Of a stretch of 31,073 bases of DNA, positions 1-9,152 are shown one piece after another (positions within the stretch are counted from its first letter, which is position 1; each line of letters begins with the position of its first letter). The stretch lies in IMG/VR virus record IMGVR_UViG_2602041669_000008, one strand, 5' to 3'. A model generated the notes under the pieces. That model was not told the DNA's origin, did not search any database, and was given only the letters and a program-made list of their open reading frames with translations. The DNA comes from a virus (taxonomy: Duplodnaviria; Heunggongvirae; Uroviricota; Caudoviricetes). The position numbers and the translations under genes are program-made.

Positions 1-1005
1 TTCATCATCCAGCACCACTTCTTTCACCGTGAAATACCCCGCGTTGATGTACTGCTGGAACGGCACATTTTTACGTCCACCGGACGCTATCAGGATGCCG
101 TTCTCCCGTAACCAGACAAACAGCGCGTTTTGCTTAAGTCCAACAACCTTTGCAAAATTCCCAATCAGGATCCCTTTAGCTACTGATACCCGGTCGGCAA
201 AATCGACTTTAGGAGCGGCGGCCACCAGCTGCTGATTTAGCTGGTGGGCTTTCTGTTCCAGAAGTTGCTTTTGTTCAGCCAGTTCGGCAGCCAGGCGTAG
301 GGCTTCAGGAAGCGTCTGGGGGATTGCGATCGGTTGCTGTTCTTTTTGTCGGAAGTAGCTGTCTTCCAGTTTTTCAAAGAATGCCCATGCCTGATCGGTT
401 TCGATCATTTTAGCGTGGCGGGCTGCGCCGCGTTCCGTCCAGAGAGTGAGGTTTCTGGCGTTCTTACCAACAGAGTTACTAAAAGTAACTCTGTTCTTAA
501 ATTCCTTTAATTTTGAACCAGTTAAAAGAAAGTAGTGTTTACCTTCTTCAAAGCGATCGGAGTTGCAAGACAAATTTTTACGAATATTGCCTTCATCGGT
601 TCCGTACCCCTTAGCAAGAGTTTCGGTCGTTACGACACGTACTCCCTGCCATTCCAGAACGGGAATTTCATCCGGCTGATTTTGAACAACCACCAGCTCC
701 GATTCCTGAGCTGAAGTTGCATGAATTTTTTCTGATTTAACGTTAGTTGCTTTCATTCTGTGTGCCTCCTTGCGTGCTTCGGCTGCGATGGTTGCGTAAT
801 TCAGATGCCCCTGTTCGAGCAGGTATTCACGGATATCAGACAACAGGATACGGTGAACCGCGTTCTTGTCCTTTCTCCGGTAAAGTTGTTTGGTGATCAT
901 GAAGTAGTTGGCAATAACGCCCGGTATATCCCTGGTACTGATACAGGCGGTATGCTGTTCAATTGCCTCGATCATCTCTTCACGGGTGACTAATGACGTT
1001 CTCAT
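1..1005 (-). CDS. ant: Antirepressor (Ant-type, KilAC-like C-terminal region), 3' end cut by the window edge
   Basis: ATG at 1003-1005 (MRTSLVTREE...) overlaps the stop of the upstream small ORF (ATGA); paralog of the complete 372-aa copy at 7480-8598. Confidence 0.7.
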   Translation of the reverse strand, partial: MRTSLVTREEMIEAIEQHTACISTRDIPGVIANYFMITKQLYRRKDKNAVHRILLSDIREYLLEQGHLNYATIAAEARKEAHRMKATNVKSEKIHATSAQESELVVVQNQPDEIPVLEWQGVRVVTTETLAKGYGTDEGNIRKNLSCNSDRFEEGKHYFLLTGSKLKEFKNRVTFSNSVGKNARNLTLWTERGAARHAKMIETDQAWAFFEKLEDSYFRQKEQQPIAIPQTLPEALRLAAELAEQKQLLEQKAHQLNQQLVAAAPKVDFADRVSVAKGILIGNFAKVVGLKQNALFVWLRENGILIASGGRKNVPFQQYINAGYFTVKEVVLDDE

Positions 1006-1196
1006 AGTCCCTCCTGAGCAGAAGCGTTAACAGGGAGGCACCAGTAACTGAGAGAATTGCGTGAATCAGTGGAAAAACGGGCAGAGAAAATGCAGGGAGC
1101 ATCCGGAAGCTGAGAGCGAGCCTCATCTTCTGTCGGTGCAATAACGAAGTGATAGTGACGTTTCTGGCAGGAGTAAAAGCGCCAGATAAATTCAGG
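1..1196. repeat. Direct repeat copy A (about 1.2 kb) matching 7588-8789; covers the icd-like ORF and the 5' two-thirds of ant; probably continues left of the window
   Basis: Positions 1-460 and 640-1196 align near-identically to 7588-8047 and 8230-8789; the track ORFs 29-235 and 7616-7822 are identical; a ~170-bp central patch is divergent. Confidence 0.85.
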
Positions 1197-1223
1197 GCGT
1201 GCGCAAGGATTGGCATTAACCAT
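1002..1223 (-). CDS. icd: Icd-like small protein (73 aa), translationally coupled to ant
   Basis: Track ORF; GAGG 9 nt upstream of ATG 1223; C-terminal 64 aa identical to the copy at 8595-8816, N-terminal 9 aa differ; size and position match P1 icd (from memory). Confidence 0.5.
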   Translation of the reverse strand: MVNANPCARPEFIWRFYSCQKRHYHFVIAPTEDEARSQLPDAPCIFSARFSTDSRNSLSYWCLPVNASAQEGL

Positions 1224-1382
1224 AGTTACGGCCTCATGTACAGGTTTAACAACCTGCTACCCGCTGCTAAACGGGTGGCAGGGCGTGACGGGGTTAGCAG
1301 ACTGGCGTACATGAAACCAGCAGGCCGAAGCCTCCCCATCACGCCCCACCATAATTTGGGCGTAACGCGGTTTTAGGGACAT

Positions 1383-1530
1383 AAAAATACCGCAATATCG
1401 GAAATCTGCGGTTGTCCGCATGTACATTCAGGCTGCTAAACCCGGTCGCAGAATTTGCTACGACGGCGGAACTATAAGCCTGAACGACAGGAAGATCAAT
1501 AGGGCAGTGTGCAATGGTAGTTTATTTTCC
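1383..1530 (-). ncRNA. Candidate c4-like structured leader/antisense RNA between a C1 operator and icd-like copy A
   Basis: Minus-strand hairpin ACCGCA/UGCGGU (1389-1412) followed by a U-run, about 145 nt downstream of the operator at 1541-1557; no ORF; sequence unrelated to the equivalent region of copy B. Confidence 0.3.
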
Positions 1531-1540
1531 TCAAAAAATC

Positions 1541-1557
1541 AAATCTATTAGAGCAAT
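1541..1557 (-). promoter_or_regulatory. C1 operator-like site (ATTGCTCTAATAGATTT, 16/17 to the consensus ATTGCTCTAATAAATTT as I recall it)
   Basis: Direct read of the minus strand; sits at the head of the icd-like/ant transcription unit. Confidence 0.6.
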
Positions 1558-1662
1558 AATGTTTGTGTGTTATTTTTGCACATGTTGAGCGTCATGGGGA
1601 ATTGAAATTTGTTTAAAACCTTGGCAACCTACTGTTTTTAATGCACTTAATAAGGTATGCAG

Positions 1663-1974
1663 ATGAAACTAGGTAATTTGTTAGCCGCAGCTATCGTTTT
1701 AACGATAACTGCATGTGCCGGAAAAGCTGAAAAAGACCCGCAATATGTAGCCGCAGAGAAATGTGCAGATTTAGTTATCACAAAATCAAAAGCTCTGGCA
1801 GAGAAAGGCATCAGTGGAAAATACGTACTTACATCAAAACTGCGTACAACTTCGACGTCTGATGGTCCATTCACATCAACACAAATCAGAGGCATTCCAT
1901 ATGCAACCTCTACGTTTCTTGATAACGGTAATGAGGGGAGTGCCTGGAGACAATGTATGGGGCCGCTATTGTAA
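1663..1974 (+). CDS. Putative lipoprotein (about 103 aa)
   Basis: Track ORF 1657-1974; second ATG at 1663 has AAGG 7 nt upstream; N-terminus MKLGNLLAAAIVLTITAC has a hydrophobic core and lipobox-like ITAC; AT-rich gene. Confidence 0.55.
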   Translation: MKLGNLLAAAIVLTITACAGKAEKDPQYVAAEKCADLVITKSKALAEKGISGKYVLTSKLRTTSTSDGPFTSTQIRGIPYATSTFLDNGNEGSAWRQCMGPLL

Positions 1975-2007
1975 GAATGAGTTGTTCCCCAAAAGGATTT
2001 GGGGATG

Positions 2008-2649
2008 TTAAAAATAGTTTCCCTTTCCAGTTAAGATTCCGTGTGGAACGCTTTTTTCCGCAAGTCTCTGTGTGCCGCGAATTATGTTAATCAGAGGGCT
2101 TAGTAACGATGGTTCCTGGCGTGCCTCAACTTCTCCAGCCATTGCCCTGATGTAGTCGGCGCTGGCAACGTTGTTGTATTCCGTCGCAAAGCAACATAGT
2201 AACGTCAGAACATGCTCTGTCGTTATTTCGCTCCAGTTGATGTTGAAAAATTCATCGCCTTTTTTATCGTGTTCGGAATCGAAGATGCTTTGGTGGAGGA
2301 TGTATTTGCCGGATTCCTTGCGCGGTAACTTGATCGCTTTCTGGCGTTCCAGCTCCTTGTAAATCTGCATTGCTTCAATCAGTACCGGCCTGCCGTTCAT
2401 GAAGGGATCGCGCAACCTTACACGCTGGCCAACTCGACCAGTAATAAAGCTGTTTTCCTCTTCCACCAGCACGATAAAACCCTTTTCCTCTTTTTCTCGC
2501 AATTCGCGCAGCAGCTGGAGTTCCATATCGCGGCGGCGTTCAGGGTAGCTGGTCCGCTCAGCCATTATCAGCTCGTTATTGATCCATGCAGCAGTCATTG
2601 ACGCCGGTTTGCCGACGCTCATCGAAACAACGCATATTTTCTTATCCAT
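2008..2649 (-). CDS. Hypothetical protein (213 aa); occupies the position of mat in the P1 order
   Basis: Internal ATG 2647-2649 with GGGGG 5 nt upstream, in frame with track ORF 2008-2796; no family recognised. Confidence 0.55.
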   Translation of the reverse strand: MDKKICVVSMSVGKPASMTAAWINNELIMAERTSYPERRRDMELQLLRELREKEEKGFIVLVEEENSFITGRVGQRVRLRDPFMNGRPVLIEAMQIYKELERQKAIKLPRKESGKYILHQSIFDSEHDKKGDEFFNINWSEITTEHVLTLLCCFATEYNNVASADYIRAMAGEVEARQEPSLLSPLINIIRGTQRLAEKSVPHGILTGKGNYF

Positions 2650-2661
2650 AGCGCCCCCTAC

Positions 2662-2689
2662 AAAAAAGAAAAGCCACCAGCGGCGGCTT
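2662..2689 (-). terminator. Intrinsic terminator-like hairpin plus U-run on the minus strand, just upstream of the 2649 start
   Basis: Minus-strand stem AAGCCGCC/GGUGGCUU (one G-U pair) followed by UUCUUUUUU. Confidence 0.45.
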
Positions 2690-2838
2690 AGCAATACAAC
2701 TGAAGGTAGCGCCCGGTACTCAGACTGTGCCGTCCATGGAATATTTGAAAAGGGATCCATCCGTACCGGGCGTGTGATGATTCTGACTGAAGTCACTTGT
2801 CAGTTGTCAATCATTTATCATTAAAAATAATATATTTA

Positions 2839-3399
2839 TTAGTGCATGATGTTTGCCATCTCATAGGCGTCAGCCAGTAACTCCATCTCTGACTTTTTCA
2901 GCAAGGTGAATTCTTTCTTGCCTCCAACCACACCATCGGCATGAACAGGGACCAGCCAGGGGTATTTTTCTCTTACTTCAGCCGGTGCTGCATGCTGGTG
3001 GTGCCATCTACAAAGTGGCAACTGCTTTTTGTGACAACCCGGCGCGGTACGACCGGAGATATGGTGCAGAGACACCTCTTCAGATATTACTCCATGCATA
3101 TAGCAGGCAATGCAGGGGAGAGCGCCAAGAGCATTGGCTATACGCCGTTCCTCCGCCGTCGGTGTTCGTCCCTTCAAGCCACGAGATTTTATTTTTACCG
3201 CACTTTTCCGCGTTTTGCTGGCTGGTGGGCGCTCTTTCTGTTTAGCGATACGGCGGTCGATAGAATCCCGCATTTTCTGATATTGCGATTCTCTCCAGGC
3301 GGGGTCAGCCAACTTTTCCCGTTGCCGAGCGATCGCTCGTTCTCTGGCTGCCTTCTGCCACTCGCGGCGCTGTTCAAGTTTTTGTTCGATTGTTTTCAT
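2839..3399 (-). CDS. ref: Ref-type HNH nuclease (186 aa; basic disordered N-terminus, Cys/His HNH motifs)
   Basis: ATG 3397-3399 in frame with track ORF 2839-3477; motifs CIACYMHG...HHISGR...CHKK...CRWHHQH; length and position next to cre match P1 Ref. Confidence 0.75.
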   Translation of the reverse strand: MKTIEQKLEQRREWQKAARERAIARQREKLADPAWRESQYQKMRDSIDRRIAKQKERPPASKTRKSAVKIKSRGLKGRTPTAEERRIANALGALPCIACYMHGVISEEVSLHHISGRTAPGCHKKQLPLCRWHHQHAAPAEVREKYPWLVPVHADGVVGGKKEFTLLKKSEMELLADAYEMANIMH

Positions 3400-3404
3400 A
3401 TGGC

Positions 3405-3430
3405 AAAAAAAAGGCGGCCTAATGGCCGCC
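3405..3430 (-). terminator. Strong intrinsic terminator on the minus strand ending 6 nt before the ref ATG
   Basis: Plus strand reads A8-GGCGGCC-TAAT-GGCCGCC, so the minus-strand RNA is a perfect 7-bp stem followed by U8. Confidence 0.7.
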
Positions 3431-3490
3431 AATGATGTCAAGGAGTTAAGTAATGGCAACGTCTTCGTAGTTGACAAAAACTGCGGCTAA

Positions 3491-3514
3491 ATTATAGCAA
3501 TCAATTAGAGCAAT
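3491..3514 (-). promoter_or_regulatory. C1 operator-like site (ATTGCTCTAATTGATTG, 14/17) abutting a TATAAT -10 on the minus strand
   Basis: Direct read; -10 TATAAT is plus 3491-3496 reverse-complemented; operator 3498-3514. Confidence 0.55.
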
Positions 3515-3580
3515 GGTAGATATTTTATTTATCGCGAATCACATTTTTTCACTTCAGTACCTGTGTGCTATACTCCTTCT

Positions 3581-3650
3581 TGATTGATTGGATGCGGAAT
3601 ACAAACCCGCTCTTTTGTGCAGCCTGGCTCCTTGCCAGGCTTTTTTATTT
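3581..3650 (+). ncRNA. Candidate small RNA (about 70 nt): extended -10 promoter, 5' motif UGAUUGAUUGG, intrinsic terminator
   Basis: TGcTATACT at 3566-3574; motif at 3581-3591; stem GCCTGGC/GCCAGGC (3622-3640) followed by TTTTTTATTT; no plus-strand ORF. Confidence 0.35.
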
Positions 3651-3956
3651 CATCATGGAAGCTGTTAACGCTTTGGATCTTGCTGAACTGATTGAAAGGG
3701 CATTGTTTACCTTACCCAGGAGTTCGCCAAATTCCGCCATCACTCTAGTAAGCCCGCGCCGCGCTTCCTCCTCCGTTGCATTCATCACAAAATGTTCAGC
3801 ACTCCGCATGCTTTTAACGGGGAACGCAACAGATATCGAGTCGATATCAGGCATCCTATCGCTCAACTTTACGGTGACAATGACAGATGGTGACTGAATT
3901 TGAGAGCTTACAGACAGCACCACATATTTTCCGTCTATTTTGAAATCCTTCCGCAT
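3645..3956 (-). CDS. Hypothetical protein (103 aa) directly downstream of cre
   Basis: Track ORF with protein-like composition; GGTGA 4 nt upstream of the ATG; the overlapping plus-strand ORF 3565-3897 is less protein-like. Confidence 0.5.
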   Translation of the reverse strand: MRKDFKIDGKYVVLSVSSQIQSPSVIVTVKLSDRMPDIDSISVAFPVKSMRSAEHFVMNATEEEARRGLTRVMAEFGELLGKVNNALSISSARSKALTASMMK

Positions 3957-3972
3957 GTGTCACCATAAATAT

Positions 3973-3989
3973 CAAATAATTAGAGCAAT
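3973..3989 (-). promoter_or_regulatory. C1 operator-like site (ATTGCTCTAATTATTTG, 14/17) between the cre stop and the downstream ORF
   Basis: Direct read. Confidence 0.45.
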
Positions 3990-4006
3990 CAAGCGTAAAT
4001 AAACGG

Positions 4007-5038
4007 CTAGTTGCCATCTTCCAGCAGGCGCACCATTGCCCCCGTTTCACTATCCAGGTTACGAATGTAGTTCATGACAATATTTACGTTGGTCCAGCCA
4101 CCAGCTTGCATGATCTCCGGTATTGAAACTCCGGCGCGGGCCATATCTCGCGCGGCACCGACACGGGCACTATGTCCAGACCAGGCCAGGTATCGCTGAC
4201 CAGAGTCATCTTTTGCCCCGTAAATCAATCGGTGAGTTGCTTCAAAAATCCCTTCCAGGGCGCGAGTTGATAGCTGGCTGGTGGATGATGGCGCGGCAAC
4301 ACCATTTTTTCTGACGCGGCAAAACAGGTAGTTATTCGGATCATCAGCTACACCAGAGACAGAAATCCATCGCTCAACCAGTTTAGTTACCCCCAGGCTA
4401 AGTGCCTTCTCTACACCAGCGGTGCTAACCAGCGTTTTCGTTCTGCCAATATGGATTAACATTCTCCCACCGTCAGTACGTGAGATATCTTTAACCCTGA
4501 TCCTAGAAATTTCGGCTATACGTAACAGGGTGTTATAAGCAATCCCCAGAAATGCCAGATTACGTATATCCTGGCAGCGATCGCTATTTTCCATGAGTGA
4601 ACGAACCTGGTCGAAATCAGTGCGTTCGAACGCCAGCGCCTGTTTTGCACGCTCACCGGCATCAACGTTTTCTTTTCGGATCCGTCGCATGACCAGTGAA
4701 ACAGCATTGCTGTCACTTGGTCGTGGCAGCCCGGACCGACGATGAAGCATGTTTAGCTGGCCCAAATGTTGTTGGATAGTTTTTACTGCCAGACCACGCG
4801 CCTGAAGATATAGAAGGTAATCGCGAACATCTTCAGGTTCTGCGGGAAACCATTTCCGGTTATTCAACTTGCACCATGCCGCCCACGACCGGCAAACGGA
4901 CAGAAGCATTTTCCAGGTATGATCAGAAAACGCCTGGCGATCCCTGAACATGTCCATCAGGTTCTTGCGAACCTCATCACTCGTTGCATCGACCGGCAAT
5001 GCAGGCAAATTTTGGTGAACGGTTAACGAATTAGTCAT
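4007..5038 (-). CDS. cre: Cre site-specific tyrosine recombinase (343 aa)
   Basis: Translation is near-identical to canonical P1 Cre as I remember it; differences noticed: N-terminus MTNSL instead of MSNLL, E39D, two A-to-S changes, C-terminal D-to-N; loxP lies about 820 bp upstream. Confidence 0.97.
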   Translation of the reverse strand: MTNSLTVHQNLPALPVDATSDEVRKNLMDMFRDRQAFSDHTWKMLLSVCRSWAAWCKLNNRKWFPAEPEDVRDYLLYLQARGLAVKTIQQHLGQLNMLHRRSGLPRPSDSNAVSLVMRRIRKENVDAGERAKQALAFERTDFDQVRSLMENSDRCQDIRNLAFLGIAYNTLLRIAEISRIRVKDISRTDGGRMLIHIGRTKTLVSTAGVEKALSLGVTKLVERWISVSGVADDPNNYLFCRVRKNGVAAPSSTSQLSTRALEGIFEATHRLIYGAKDDSGQRYLAWSGHSARVGAARDMARAGVSIPEIMQAGGWTNVNIVMNYIRNLDSETGAMVRLLEDGN

Positions 5039-5430
5039 TTATTATGCGTGATTTTAACAGTTAAGCCTTGTTCATGAAGTATCTCATCAATAATTCGAAT
5101 CACATCCCCTGGTAGATCATCGTTCTCGAAATATCTGTGATCGGGGATTTCTACAGTGATTGGGGTTGCTGCTTTATGCAAAATCCGAACAATCTTTTTT
5201 TCTTTTTTGCATGTTGCATATTCAGCCTCTTCGATATCTATCCAGCTCGCACCATCAAATTGCTGGTAAACCCGAGTGTATAGTAAGCGATTTCGCTTTA
5301 CTTCTTCTGCTAACTCCCAAATTGCAACAGCCATAGCACGTTCATTTTCATTCGTTCCAGGGTTAGCAGCTTTTTGTTTTGCGTCGTTCAGTAAGGCGTT
5401 TACCTTGGCATCTGTCAGGCCATTAAACAT
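5035..5430 (-). CDS. Hypothetical protein (131 aa) translationally coupled to cre
   Basis: Track ORF; GGTGA 3 nt upstream of the ATG; stop TGA overlaps the cre ATG (ATGA); no family recognised. Confidence 0.6.
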   Translation of the reverse strand: MFNGLTDAKVNALLNDAKQKAANPGTNENERAMAVAIWELAEEVKRNRLLYTRVYQQFDGASWIDIEEAEYATCKKEKKIVRILHKAATPITVEIPDHRYFENDDLPGDVIRIIDEILHEQGLTVKITHNK

Positions 5431-5449
5431 TCATCACCTCATGATCAAG

Positions 5450-5671
5450 TTAAATTATTGTTTTCAGCAGAGTGTACAGGATTGGCTCTGCCTTTACCTG
5501 GTTATGGTTCTCGTCATAGAAACGCCAGCGACCGCGCGTGCGTTCTATTTTCTCTTCACCGCGAGATAATGACAGTTGGTAACTATCACGCTCAAACCAT
5601 TTTGCCCGCCAGTAACCACGGTTTTTCTCAAGCTCAAGATGAGTGGACACTTTAGCAGCTGAATATCCCAT
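5450..5671 (-). CDS. Hypothetical basic protein (73 aa)
   Basis: Track ORF; GGTGA 3 nt upstream of the ATG, preceded by CCAATCAATCA; first gene of the unit ending in cre. Confidence 0.5.
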   Translation of the reverse strand: MGYSAAKVSTHLELEKNRGYWRAKWFERDSYQLSLSRGEEKIERTRGRWRFYDENHNQVKAEPILYTLLKTII

Positions 5672-5768
5672 TTTTCACCTCTGATTGATTGGTGGTGCTA
5701 AGTGCGCTACGCGAAATCTGGAGCACTAACACTGCCAACATTTCGCAGATTTTACGTAGCGCAACCTT

Positions 5769-5788
5769 GATCAAATGATCAAGTGATC
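5769..5788. promoter_or_regulatory. Cluster of three GATC (Dam) sites within 20 bp in the lox-proximal promoter region
   Basis: GATC at 5769, 5777 and 5785; Dam-sensitive cre promoters are described for P1 (from memory). Confidence 0.4.
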
Positions 5789-5860
5789 ACTATTTGACCT
5801 GATAAGGTATTGAACTGTATGGATTTACAGGTAAATTAATCATGTTCAATAACCCTTAAG

Positions 5861-5894
5861 ATAACTTCGTATAATGTATGCTATACGAAGTTAT
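5861..5894. other. loxP: loxP site (13-bp inverted repeats around an 8-bp spacer)
   Basis: Exact match ATAACTTCGTATA-ATGTATGC-TATACGAAGTTAT. Confidence 0.98.
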
Positions 5895-6020
5895 TAGGTC
5901 CGAAGAGGAGTTTACGTCCAGCCGCGCATAAAAATCAATAATCATTAGAACAATAAATTTTGAGAGAAAAATCCCACTCCACCAGCAAAAAACTGGATTG
6001 TTTTTCATAGTTGTTTGACA

Positions 6021-6037
6021 ATTGCTCTAATAAATTA
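6021..6037 (+). promoter_or_regulatory. C1 operator (ATTGCTCTAATAAATTA, 16/17) in the spacer of a TTGACA-N17 promoter upstream of coi-c1
   Basis: TTGACA at 6015-6020 immediately followed by the operator; a weaker operator-like site lies at 5938-5954. Confidence 0.65.
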
Positions 6038-6275
6038 TAGTTTTGCCGCCGTTACGTAATACGACTTTGGATTCACTATTTAATGTGTCTTCAGCGTTGT
6101 AGAGCGGCTCAGAAGGAAATGAGCAAACAGGGAAACCTTATACAACGGCATTACAGCTATGCATTGCTCATCTTACACACAGCGCAATGTTGTTAGATTA
6201 CCCCAGCATGGATCATGGGTGAAACAGTAGGTCAGAGCTTCAGGCTCTGTGTTGTCAATACAGTGAGGCATAATT

Positions 6276-6485
6276 ATGGCTTTCATTCAACCAACCATCG
6301 ACGACGTTAGACATTGCTCTAACGCTTTATCTGTAGACCCTGCCGAAACCGACGCTGCCCGCGCCATTGCTGAACACTACTCAAAGATATCCAATCAGGA
6401 GTACCGCATCACCCAAGACGACCTGGATGACCTCACTGACACAATCGAATATCTCATGGCAACTAACCAGTTAGACTCACAATAA
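6276..6485 (+). CDS. coi: Coi-like small protein (69 aa) upstream of c1
   Basis: Track ORF; GAGG 8 nt upstream of the ATG; size and position match P1 Coi (from memory; sequence not verified). Confidence 0.55.
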   Translation: MAFIQPTIDDVRHCSNALSVDPAETDAARAIAEHYSKISNQEYRITQDDLDDLTDTIEYLMATNQLDSQ

Positions 6486-6595
6486 ATGCACTAATAAATC
6501 TATTATTTTTGTTTGATCCCTCTATAATATAGGTCAGTAATGACCGGTTTTCTCAGCCGGGCGTTATTGACCATGTCAATTCTGGAGGAGGATCA

Positions 6596-7447
6596 ATGAT
6601 AAATTATGTCTACGGCGAACAACTGTACCAGGAGTTCGTCAGCTTCAGGGATCTCTTTCTAAAAAAAGCTGTTGCACGCGCCCAACACGTTGATACAGCC
6701 AGCGACGGTCGTCCTGTACGCCCGGTTGTCGTTCTACCGTTCAAAGAAACTGACAGCATTCAGGCTGAAATTGATAAATGGACTTTAATGGCGCGGGAAC
6801 TGGAACAGTACCCAGACCTCAATATCCCAAAGACTATTTTATATCCAGTGCCTAACATCCTTCGCGGTGTGCGCAAGGTTACAACTTATCAGACAGAAGC
6901 TGTGAACAGCGTCAACATGACCGCTGGACGCATTATTCATCTGATTGATAAGGACATTCGCATCCAGAAAAGCGCGGGGATCAATGAGCACAGTGCGAAA
7001 TACATAGAGAACCTGGAAGCAACAAAAGAGCTAATGAAGCAGTACCCGGAGGATGAAAAATTCCGTATGCGTGTACACGGCTTTAGCGAAACAATGCTGC
7101 GCGTCCACTACATTTCCAGTAGCCCTAACTACAATGATGGTAAATCAGTTAGTTACCATGTGCCACTGTGTGGCGTGTTTATCTGCGATGAAACTCTCCG
7201 TGATGGAATTATCATCAACGGTGAATTCGAAAAAGCAAAATTTAGCCTTTATGACTCCATAGAACCGATCATCTGCGACCGCTGGCCGCAAGCAAAAATA
7301 TATCGCCTGGCAGATATTGAAAATGTAAAAAAACAAATTGCCATCACTCGCGAAGAGAAAAAGGTTAAGTCAGCCGCATCAGTTGCGCGCAGCCGTAAAA
7401 CCAAGAAGGGGCAGCCAGTAAACGACAACCCCGAAAGCGCGCAATAA
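6596..7447 (+). CDS. c1: C1 immunity repressor (283 aa)
   Basis: Track ORF with strong RBS GGAGGAGG; length equals P1 C1; sits next to loxP; many cognate operator motifs across the window. Confidence 0.85.
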   Translation: MINYVYGEQLYQEFVSFRDLFLKKAVARAQHVDTASDGRPVRPVVVLPFKETDSIQAEIDKWTLMARELEQYPDLNIPKTILYPVPNILRGVRKVTTYQTEAVNSVNMTAGRIIHLIDKDIRIQKSAGINEHSAKYIENLEATKELMKQYPEDEKFRMRVHGFSETMLRVHYISSSPNYNDGKSVSYHVPLCGVFICDETLRDGIIINGEFEKAKFSLYDSIEPIICDRWPQAKIYRLADIENVKKQIAITREEKKVKSAASVARSRKTKKGQPVNDNPESAQ

Positions 7448-7452
7448 ATTAT

Positions 7453-7470
7453 GCCCGGCATCAACCGGGC
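7453..7470. terminator. Hairpin between convergent c1 and ant; candidate bidirectional terminator
   Basis: GCCCGG-CATCAA-CCGGGC with U-rich flank on the minus strand and a moderately U-rich flank on the plus strand. Confidence 0.45.
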
Positions 7471-7479
7471 ATTCTTCCA

Positions 7480-8598
7480 TTATTCAGCCGCCACCGGTTT
7501 TAACAAGCCAGCATCGAGCAGTTTACGCGTCAACCACTGCTGGCCTTTACCCGTTAATTGGGGCGTCAGCCGTATCTGGTAGCCATTTTCATCATCCAGC
7601 ACCACTTCTTTCACCGTGAAATACCCCGCGTTGATGTACTGCTGGAACGGCACATTTTTACGTCCACCGGACGCTATCAGGATGCCGTTCTCCCGTAACC
7701 AGACAAACAGCGCGTTTTGCTTAAGTCCAACAACCTTTGCAAAATTCCCAATCAGGATCCCTTTAGCTACTGATACCCGGTCGGCAAAATCGACTTTAGG
7801 AGCGGCGGCCACCAGCTGCTGATTTAGCTGGTGGGCTTTCTGTTCCAGAAGTTGCTTTTGTTCAGCCAGTTCGGCAGCCAGGCGTAGGGCTTCAGGAAGC
7901 GTCTGGGGGATTGCGATCGGTTGCTGTTCTTTTTGTCGGAAGTAGCTGTCTTCCAGTTTTTCAAAGAATGCCCATGCCTGATCGGTTTCGAGCATTTTAG
8001 CGTGGCGGGCTGCGCCGCGTTCTGTCCAGAGGGTGAGTGAGCGAACATTGCGAGCAATTTTTACAGAGTAGTTTAAAGCTACTCTGTGCTTCAACTCGCG
8101 CAATGATTCTCCTTCAACTTTGAAAAAGTGCTTCCCTTCAACAAAGCGTACTTTGTTCTCATGATGATTTTGGCGAATACGGATTGTTTCTGTCCCATAC
8201 CCTCTAGCAAGAGTCTCGGTTGTCACTACACGCACTCCCTGCCATTCCAGAACGGGAATTTCATCAGACTGATTCTGAACAACCACCAGCTCCGATTCCT
8301 GAACTGAAGGTGCATGAATTTTTTCTAATTTAACGTTATTTGCTTTCATTCTGTGTGCCTCCTTGCGTGCTTCGGCTGCGACGGTTGCGTAATTCAGATG
8401 ACCCTGTTCGAGCAGGTATTCACGGATATCAGACAACAGGATACGGTGAACCGCGTTCTTGTCCTTTCTCCGGTAAAGTTGTTTGGTGATCATGAAGTAG
8501 TTGGCAATAACGCCTGGTATATCCCTGGTACTGATACAGGCAGTGTGCTGTTCAATTGCCTCGATAATCTCTTCACGGGTGACTAATGACGTTCTCAT
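7480..8598 (-). CDS. ant: Antirepressor (372 aa; Bro-N/Rha-like N-terminal region, KilAC-type C-terminal domain)
   Basis: Track ORF; C-terminal motif ...VAKGILIGNFAKVVGLKQNALFVWLRENGIL...; start overlaps the icd-like stop (ATGA). Confidence 0.8.
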   Translation of the reverse strand: MRTSLVTREEIIEAIEQHTACISTRDIPGVIANYFMITKQLYRRKDKNAVHRILLSDIREYLLEQGHLNYATVAAEARKEAHRMKANNVKLEKIHAPSVQESELVVVQNQSDEIPVLEWQGVRVVTTETLARGYGTETIRIRQNHHENKVRFVEGKHFFKVEGESLRELKHRVALNYSVKIARNVRSLTLWTERGAARHAKMLETDQAWAFFEKLEDSYFRQKEQQPIAIPQTLPEALRLAAELAEQKQLLEQKAHQLNQQLVAAAPKVDFADRVSVAKGILIGNFAKVVGLKQNALFVWLRENGILIASGGRKNVPFQQYINAGYFTVKEVVLDDENGYQIRLTPQLTGKGQQWLTRKLLDAGLLKPVAAE

Positions 8599-8789
8599 AG
8601 TCCCTCCTGAGCAGAAGCGTTAACAGGGAGGCACCAGTAACTGAGAGAATTGCGTGAATCAGTGGAAAAACGGGCAGAGAAAATACATGGGGCGTCAGGA
8701 AGCTGAGAGCGGGCCTCATCTTCTGTTGGTGCAATAACGAAGTGATAGTGACGTTTTTGGCAGGAGTAAAAGCGCCAGATAAATTCAGG
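7588..8789. repeat. Direct repeat copy B (matches 1-1196)
   Basis: See copy A; divergent patch at about 8047-8225, inside ant. Confidence 0.85.
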
Positions 8790-8816
8790 ATGAGTTGGGG
8801 TAGGGATAGTAGCCAT
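8595..8816 (-). CDS. icd: Icd-like small protein (73 aa), translationally coupled to ant
   Basis: ATG 8814-8816 with AGGAGG 8 nt upstream, in frame with track ORF 8595-9044; MATIPTPTHPEFIWRFYSCQ... Confidence 0.5.
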   Translation of the reverse strand: MATIPTPTHPEFIWRFYSCQKRHYHFVIAPTEDEARSQLPDAPCIFSARFSTDSRNSLSYWCLPVNASAQEGL

Positions 8817-8981
8817 ATTGGCAGCCTCCTTAGACGTTGGTATGTAACCACCGCAGAAGAGACCAATCTTGCTGGCGGTGGACTGTACGGAGTTGGCCTT
8901 ACTGGCGTCCAAGGTAACCAGCCTACCCGAAGGTAGCCCCATACAGCCCACCATTGTAGAGGTGTGCGTGTACGCCGATAC

Positions 8982-9125
8982 AAAAAAAAGACGCGAGCGG
9001 CGTCTGTATCGCCTTAGACTTAAGCGGGAGGCCAATCCCGGCACCCGTTTTAATGAGGTGCCTGATAAGCATAAACCGAAAATGCCTCAAGGCGCAAGAG
9101 GTCAGGCTCAATGTAACATCGGTAG
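8982..9125 (-). ncRNA. Candidate c4-like structured leader/antisense RNA upstream of icd-like copy B
   Basis: Begins just below the operator at 9136-9152; hairpins GGCACC/GGUGCC and CGGGA/UCCCG; ends in stem AGACGC/GCGUCU plus U8 (8982-9005); no ORF. Confidence 0.35.
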
Positions 9126-9135
9126 TTAAAAAACA

Positions 9136-9152
9136 CAATTTATTAGAGCAAA
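9136..9152 (-). promoter_or_regulatory. C1 operator-like site (TTTGCTCTAATAAATTG, 15/17) heading the icd-like/ant unit
   Basis: Direct read; lies immediately after the pacB stop. Confidence 0.6.

Follow-up and report, generated by a model that had tools for sequence, protein, structure and literature searches.

In phage P1, the antirepressor Ant acts by inactivating the repressor, C1, whereupon the prophage turns lytic. In the immI loci of P1 and P7, the antisense RNA c4 pairs with two target sites, a2 and b2, and blocks translation of icd and hence expression of ant; the two phages are reportedly heteroimmune. P1 carries a single immI, at 48.1-49.7 kb and far from immC. Here we analysed a 31,073-nt stretch of DNA (the window) from the IMG/VR virus record IMGVR_UViG_2602041669_000008, in which two modules of this kind, each an icd-like open reading frame (ORF) followed by an antirepressor gene, lie as direct repeats on either side of a segment carrying cre, loxP, coi and c1. 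An earlier reading of the sequence (the original prediction) had described the two modules, correctly placed the single immI of P1 far from immC and regarded the arrangement as unusual. With a probability of roughly 0.7, we hold that they are two of the three complete, differently keyed immI-type cassettes of the phage-plasmid p95JB1A, which would have been acquired by recombination and would widen both its immunity and its capacity to break immunity.

Related arrangements have been described in several elements. Venturini et al. 2019 reported that RCS47 and pTZ20_1P have ant between pacB and c1, that RD-1 of pSvP1 holds icd-ant1/2 homologues in place of res-mod, and that the pSvP1 segment matches CP021336/CP021340, which are p95JB1A and its sibling (PMC6906374). 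Both insertion sites are those of p95JB1A, but they were treated there as differences in gene content, and the account did not extend to c4 RNAs, target sites, specificities or the presence of three or more cassettes per element (PMC6906374). The IsrK-orf45-AnrP locus of Gifsy-1 in Salmonella (Hershko-Shalev et al. 2016; PMC4825925) consists of a short leader RNA ending in a terminator, followed by a small ORF and a cis-blocked antirepressor, as does the cassette called B below, and the stable RNA STnc1160 lies downstream of IsrK (PMC4825925). In Gifsy-1, however, the leader RNA was shown to activate antirepressor translation in trans (PMC4825925) and there is no C1 operator, whereas for p95JB1A we infer a decoy role. 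The D6-like plasmid prophage pYU39_89 has a second c4-icd region, comparable to the extra cassettes described here, but this prophage comes from another group of phages and its second region was reported without an ant gene (PMC6799933). Our full-text literature search found no analysis of multiple c4 specificities or orthogonal cassettes in one element, although an earlier description may exist in the phage D6 literature.

Judged by sequence identity, the window is part of the P1-like phage-plasmid p95JB1A of Escherichia coli 95JB1: the 9.2-kb region holding both modules is 100% identical to NZ_CP021336.1 (86,922 bp, circular) and also to NZ_CP021340.1 from an outbreak sibling. Across its 31,073 positions the full window differs from NZ_CP021336.1 at two, 28751 and 28755, and it may therefore derive from the plasmid of the sibling isolate or from a different release of the same record. 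The plasmid contains three matches to the Rfam C4 family, each followed by icd-ant, and all three cassettes have the same orientation; where the original prediction counted two modules, there is thus a third outside the window. Neither cassette in the window occupies the canonical site, since the immI of P1 and P7 lies beside kilA-repL, whereas cassette A adjoins lxc in place of res-mod and cassette B lies between c1 and pacB. The third, cassette C, was located by whole-plasmid annotation and an Rfam scan at 74.3-75.7 kb of the plasmid and represents the canonical immI, because kilA and repL follow it. The parts of cassette A are as follows, in window coordinates.

1541-1557, minus strand: C1 operator A, ATTGCTCTAATAGATTT, one mismatch to the P1 operator consensus ATTGCTCTAATAAATTT; aligns with P1 Oc4/Op51
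1471-1499, minus strand: promoter-like site A, TTGATC-17-TATAGT, a consensus match only; aligns with the annotated constitutive c4 promoter of P1, P1c4/P51b
1419-1477, minus strand: leader A with the upstream target sites a1 and b1; Rfam c4-a1b1 (RF03163) matches 1425-1477 with 55.5 bits (gathering score, 46.7)
1433-1439, minus strand: a1 of A, TTAGCAG
1419-1425, minus strand: b1 of A, GTACATG
1271-1356, minus strand: c4 antisense RNA A; Rfam C4 (RF01695), 72.1 bits against a gathering score of 45, full-length model match
1307-1313, minus strand: loop b' of c4-A, CAUGUAC, in a hairpin loop of the predicted fold
1294-1300, minus strand: loop a' of c4-A, CUGCUAA, single-stranded in the predicted fold
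1224-1270, minus strand: downstream target region A, with a2 at 1264-1270 and b2 at 1235-1241, 7/7 complementary to the c4-A loops
1002-1223, minus strand: icd A, 73 aa; NCBIfam phage_ICD_like (NF033153), 49.8 bits against 25; 82% identical to P1 Icd
1-1005 in the window, minus strand: ant A, 370 aa in the plasmid (WP_021351710.1), continuing left of the window

The promoter scan of cassette A returned the one site listed, in register with P1 P51b, and c4-A is predicted to fold with a free energy of -48.1 kcal/mol (z = -5.6). Its b2 site abuts the icd Shine-Dalgarno sequence GAGG, and the icd stop codon overlaps the ant start by 4 nt (ATGA). The leader is 82.6% identical to that of P1, with an a-site that is the one found in P7. 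Cassette B has the same immI elements in the same order.

9136-9152, minus strand: C1 operator B, TTTGCTCTAATAAATTG, two mismatches to the same consensus; aligns with P1 Oc4
8984-9061, minus strand: IsrK-type leader B; Rfam isrK (RF01394), 60.8 bits against a gathering score of 50
9029-9035, minus strand: a1 of B, TTGGCCT, in a hairpin loop
9012-9019, minus strand: b1 of B
8989-9005 plus a T run, minus strand: intrinsic terminator of leader B, from the terminator scan
8871-8958, minus strand: c4 antisense RNA B; Rfam C4 (RF01695), 75.9 bits against 45, full-length model match
8907-8914, minus strand: loop b' of c4-B, CCUUGGAC
8893-8899, minus strand: loop a' of c4-B, AGGCCAA
8860-8866, minus strand: a2 of B, TTGGTCT, in the target region 8828-8866
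8828-8835, minus strand: b2 of B, GTCTAAGG, overlapping the icd Shine-Dalgarno sequence AAGGAGG
8595-8816, minus strand: icd B, 73 aa, coupled to ant B by a 4-nt overlap (ATGA); encodes the same protein as icd of the canonical immI
7480-8598, minus strand: ant B, 372 aa (WP_021351678.1); Pfam ORF6N (116-202) and KilAC/ANT (260-361)
7451-7472, no strand assigned: hairpin ATGCCCGG-N6-CCGGGCAT with a 9-bp stem, in the 32-nt gap between the convergent stop codons of c1 and ant B

Operator B begins 4 nt past the stop codon of pacB, and comparison of insertion points indicates that the cassette replaces exactly the spacer of just 24 nt that separates pacB and c1 in P1. The promoter scan found no consensus sigma-70 site in cassette B; c4-B is predicted to fold with -41.6 kcal/mol (z = -3.5). 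The hairpin across which cassette B converges on c1 has, read on the ant strand, a predicted free energy of -18.6 kcal/mol (z = -3.0) and is counted as part of the repeated cassette because a copy also follows ant A. Several elements of the original prediction were borne out at this level, namely the separate C1 operator of each copy, the translational coupling of an icd-like ORF to the antirepressor, the convergence of copy B on c1 across a hairpin and the structured leader of each copy. These leaders proved to include c4 antisense RNAs, each with a distinct target specificity, which that reading had missed.

At the protein level, the Icd proteins are 74-82% identical to P1 Icd, and those of A and B differ over their first nine codons (MVNANPCAR and MATIPTPTH), as had been noted from the sequence together with the difference between the leaders. 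Ant A and Ant B are 89.7% identical to each other and share 58% identity over 344 aa with P1 Ant1; the first 100 aa are conserved, as are Met84, where Ant2 starts, and the KilAC domain at the C-terminus (Pfam ANT, E = 1e-31). Their middle domain is Pfam ORF6N (PF10543; E = 1e-19 to 2.5e-19), which the Ant1 proteins of P1 and P7 lack. Of the Bro-N/KilAC architecture proposed at the outset, the KilAC half stood, but the Pfam search gave no Bro-N match at E <= 0.01 in either protein, returning ORF6N and KilAC/ANT only; the Bro-N label was dropped in favour of ORF6N.

To place the three cassettes in one frame, leaders A, B and C were aligned with the annotated immI loci of P1 and P7; all elements fell in register, in the order operator, a1, b1, c4 (loops b' and a'), a2, b2, Shine-Dalgarno sequence and icd ATG. 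The parts of A and B and their order are those of P1/P7 immI, including an ant gene with a KilAC domain and an internal Ant2 start. The leader of cassette C is of the IsrK type, above the Rfam isrK threshold, and the 3' end of its ant is 98% identical to that of P1. The target sites read as follows.

P1: a, TTGACAG; b, GTTAGTG
P7: a, TTAGCAG; b, GATTGTG
A: a, TTAGCAG; b, GTACATG
B: a, TTGGCCT (a1) and TTGGTCT (a2), that is, TTGGYCT; b, GTCTAAGG
C: a, TTGGAAC; b, GCAAAAGG

In each module the c4 loops exactly complement their own targets, with one G-U pair in B; cognate loop/target pairing reaches 7/7 at both sites in the pairing matrix. Non-cognate pairing among A, B and C does not exceed 5/7, with runs of at most 5, against a P1 x P7 benchmark of 6/7 and 5/7. 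Because this cross-pairing is weaker than that between the heteroimmune P1 and P7, each c4 should silence only its own ant. The b specificities of A and B are new relative to P1 and P7, and the whole leader of B and C belongs to a different, IsrK-type family. As far as sequence can test them, all the defining features of the immI family are present in each cassette.

The leader families also bear on the relationship to Gifsy-1. Judged by these Rfam matches, IsrK appears to be functionally equivalent to the a1/b1 leader of P1, and IsrK-AnrP looks like an immI-type circuit. In Rfam, isrK has no clan, and C4 and c4-a1b1 both belong to CL00128.

The repeats themselves were delimited by self-BLAST, which gave a single pair in the window, 1-1196 and 7588-8789, in direct orientation and with the extent originally described. 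The copies are 91.5% identical across ~1205 alignment columns, and thus differ by 8.5%, with an offset of 7587-7593 bp (~7.59 kb start to start). This identity is distributed unevenly. The 3' halves of ant contain a 400-bp block of 100% identity (14-413 / 7601-8000), and a divergent patch of ~150 bp at ~464-607 / 8051-8200 falls to 54-58% with shoulders of 78-86%, in agreement with the internal divergence that had been placed at ~460-630 / 8047-8225. The 5' half of ant and icd as far as about codon 10 are 90-100% identical, and upstream of that codon the two copies show no homology. To judge from the sequences, the divergent patch is an allele swap within ORF6N, with reading frame and domain score preserved. 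Copy A is truncated by the left edge of the window; in the plasmid the repeat extends ~136 bp further, through the last 36 codons of ant A and the terminator hairpin, for a full length of ~1.34 kb.

The identical 400-bp block favours the view that the second copy arose in assembly or that one immI was duplicated locally and very recently, and yet this view is refuted by the remaining evidence. PacBio RSII reads from a 20-kb library closed the plasmid independently in two isolates (PMC6602927), which excludes an assembly duplication and establishes that both copies exist. The overall divergence of the copies, their unrelated leaders (c4-a1b1 versus isrK), their different c4 loops and a patch of 55% identity speak equally against a single recent origin, and the same architecture occurs in unrelated plasmids. 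A simple tandem or segmental duplication was likewise ruled out, given leaders from different Rfam families and precise intergenic replacement points. Because of these same two features, the cassettes would have been acquired via recombination among P1-like elements and not by local duplication. Later gene conversion may have homogenised the ant 3' halves, leaving the identical block, and the direct-repeat geometry would then be incidental.

We then determined how widely the arrangement is distributed. PLSDB plasmid records were queried with junction-spanning sequences, because one cassette can match both repeats of a 9.2-kb query and so inflate two-copy counts. Of 816 matching records, 270 (about one-third) covered the c1-cassette-pacB junction to at least 80% within a single place, and the cassette at this site is kept across many hosts and countries; in the remaining records c1 lies beside pacB, as in P1. 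The lxc-side junction was covered in just 13 of 907 records. A query with the ant 3' end matched 1015 places in 667 plasmid records, and an evenly spaced sample of 60 records showed mostly one ant place, two in about a third, and three, four and five in single records. The direct bracket as found here (lxc-side cassette, mat, ref, cre, loxP, coi, c1, cassette, pacB) is present in CP099043.1 from a UK poultry farm, and also in NZ_CP101271.1 (China, human), in which, however, other genes replace lxc; these unrelated plasmids carry other combinations of c4 types. Phages RCS47, 673R5 and JL22 match at an additional place besides immI and kilA, and RCS47 also has the c1/pacB-site cassette. The expectation that two copies bracketing immC would be unusual therefore holds for the rare lxc-side site, but the arrangement is not unique: reference P1-like genomes have it, and both sites appear in PMC6906374. 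The architecture is recurrent and partly documented; its variant feature is that cassettes with different keys are stacked at sites other than the canonical one.

Three scans of IMG/VR viral contigs with Icd queries yielded 168 non-redundant cassettes with 16 a'/b' combinations in two leader families. In the P1-type family, loop b' reads CACTAAC, CACAATC, CATGTAC, CGTAAGT, CATTCGT or CACAAGT and loop a' CTGTCAA or CTGCTAA; in the IsrK-type family, b' reads ACCTTGGAC, CCCTTTGAC or CCCTTTTGC and a' AAGGCCAA, AGTTCCAA or AGTCTCAA. At least nine b alleles and at least five a alleles thus underlie at least 16 loop combinations. Among 56 distinct leaders, a' pairs fully (7/7) with a1 and a2 in all 56, and b' pairs with b1 and b2 at 7/7 positions in the P1-type family and at 8/9 scored positions in the IsrK-type family. 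A C1 operator with at most three mismatches was present in 155 of 155 cassettes examined, and the ant ORF was full length in 45 of 48 c1/pacB-site cassettes, a level of intactness equal to that at the canonical site. IsrK-type leaders are nearly always the ones found at the c1/pacB site, and P1-type leaders predominate at the canonical site. A further insertion site lies between mat and cre, and cassettes there point the opposite way to the c1-side cassette. The plasmid p06-3542 of E. albertii (NZ_CP034163.1) has five cassettes with five different loop combinations, at the canonical, c1/pacB and mat/cre sites, between the lysozyme and head-processing genes and beside dnaB at the record origin, and one 97-kb viral contig likewise has five cassettes, all of different types. 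Three TnpB genes (IS200/IS605-type) were also seen in p06-3542, two of them near cassettes. Among genomes with at least two cassettes, 39 of 40 had no duplicated type.

By analogy with P1 and P7, each c4 would be made in the lysogen and pair with its a2/b2 sites, silencing icd and, through translational coupling, ant; Ant, if expressed, would inactivate C1 and lead to lytic induction. A lysogen with three c4 RNAs would be immune to superinfecting relatives bearing any of the three ant types. Conversely, an incoming element would bring three differently keyed antirepressors, and a resident would stay repressed only with all three matching c4 RNAs. The a1/b1 leader would serve as a C1-controlled decoy for c4; leader B, which ends in a strong terminator and resembles the trans activator IsrK of Gifsy-1, may therefore act as such a decoy. 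Broader superinfection immunity combined with immunity-breaking is the likely role of the additional cassettes.

Several observations weigh against this reading. The lack of cross-repression among the three cassettes is a prediction from base-pairing counts and the P1/P7 precedent; the a-site of cassette A is common to P7, and some co-resident cassettes have one loop in common. The distinctness of types within a genome is largely explained by site and lineage: among same-family pairs in a genome, 1 of 27 was identical against 3.6 expected, a difference that is not significant (P = 0.10, permutation over the 168 cassettes). The trend lies in the expected direction and is suggestive of selection for stacking different types; because the test of duplicate-type avoidance is suggestive only, we infer the adaptive role and regard it as likely. 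The sole genome in the sample with a duplicated type (contig L014, IMGVR_UViG_2698536372_000019, 1-6465) has a tandem pair of same-type c4-icd units, 1566 bp apart, together with two further cassettes of other types; this tandem lies at a contig end and may be an artefact of that end.

The same lack of significance would fit a reading in which the extra cassettes are neutral debris of exchange between co-resident P1-like plasmids, each tolerated via its own silencer and of no benefit. The insertion sites are known variable hot-spots (res-mod RD-1 and the pacB/c1 spacer; PMC6906374), the cassettes are mosaic, and most P1-like plasmids have one cassette, as seen in the single match of most of the 60 sampled records. 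A useless cassette should nevertheless decay, because an unsilenced ant is costly in that it induces the prophage, and yet nearly all copies retain intact ORFs and a full set of regulatory elements, roughly one P1-like plasmid in three has kept the c1/pacB cassette, and 16 combinations with perfect three-way covariation imply ongoing selection on the match between c4 and its targets. We consider the neutral reading unlikely. Beyond the acquisition of differently keyed cassettes that widen immunity, a bolder proposal would have P1-like phage-plasmids maintain a combinatorial lock-and-key library of c4, with up to five mutually orthogonal cassettes per element, stacking that is adaptive in an arms race and an a1/b1 leader (IsrK-like in cassettes B and C) that titrates c4 to give switch-like induction. 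In such a library the cassettes would be portable units bounded by the C1 operator and the terminator hairpin. We regard this extension as possible and rate it somewhat short of even odds.

The segment bracketed by the repeats was taken from the annotation of NZ_CP021336.1 and CP099043.1 and contains the following features.

1657-7447, no strand assigned: bracketed segment
1657-1974, plus strand: hypothetical gene, a 105-aa ORF with no NCBIfam family match
2008-2649, minus strand: mat, from the plasmid annotation
2839-3399, minus strand: ref, from the plasmid annotation
3645-3956, minus strand: 103-aa ORF, labelled 'lysogeny establishment protein' at the same position in CP099043.1
4007-5038, minus strand: cre, from the plasmid annotation
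5861-5894, no strand assigned: loxP, perfect match
6276-6485, plus strand: coi, from the plasmid annotation
6596-7447, plus strand: c1; NCBIfam phage_rep_C1, 609 bits
3498-3514 and 3973-3989, no strand assigned: C1-operator-like sites upstream of ref and near cre, at most three mismatches
6021-6037 and 6485-6501, no strand assigned: C1-operator-like sites of immC, at most three mismatches
12443, 22602, 24694/24743 and 28367, no strand assigned: C1-operator-like sites farther along the window, at most three mismatches

With the operators of cassettes A and B, the window holds 11 C1-operator-like sites at up to three mismatches, against 0.18 expected, and as a pattern of sequence matches these dispersed sites are the C1 regulon expected of a P1-like element. 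The interval between cassette A and mat (~1580-2100), which includes the 105-aa ORF, shows ~91% identity with F plasmid NC_002483.1 (positions 2092-2607) as well as with further plasmids that are not P1-like.

This segment is what recombination between the repeats would remove, as the original prediction pointed out, and the repeats could on that basis be a recombination switch in which a crossover between ant A and ant B excises the 7.6-kb c1-coi-loxP-cre-ref-mat segment to give a repressor-less, obligately lytic derivative. Their direct orientation and the 400 bp of full identity would suit such an exchange, and one 87.9-kb viral contig (L040, IMGVR_UViG_2548876945_000003, 35256-43474) shows just the pacB-cassette-lxc junction that was predicted, the crossover falling within ant: pacB, a single c4-icd-ant and lxc-ulx-darB are joined there without c1, coi, loxP, cre, ref or mat between them. 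This contig, however, comes from a fragmented draft assembly in which a collapsed repeat would give an identical join, so the junction could reflect either a genuine deletion or such a collapse. The predicted deletion is thus represented by that one draft contig and was found in 0 of 809 plasmid records; moreover, immC-bracketing cassettes are inverted elsewhere (the pairs L019+L076 and L065+L082, and p06-3542), showing that their orientation is not conserved, and the deletion would also remove cre and loxP. Given the absence of the junction from the 809 plasmids and the inverted orientation elsewhere, the deletion is best seen as an incidental liability and not a designed function, and a switch of this kind is very improbable.

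In practical terms the message is modest: the repeat is real and functional-looking, and its architecture is recurrent and not a one-off. Through the Rfam match, IsrK-AnrP of Gifsy-1 and P1 immI would be linked as circuits of a single kind. Phage-plasmids of the P1 type, which carry resistance genes, are widespread in E. coli and Salmonella, and their immunity circuitry governs coexistence, exclusion and induction. Were each cassette to act as a lock of its own, the c4 RNAs present would predict the range of a plasmid's immunity and anti-immunity against its relatives, giving a sequence-readable 'immunity type' comparable to plasmid incompatibility typing, and the cassettes would constitute a natural set of orthogonal antisense regulators.

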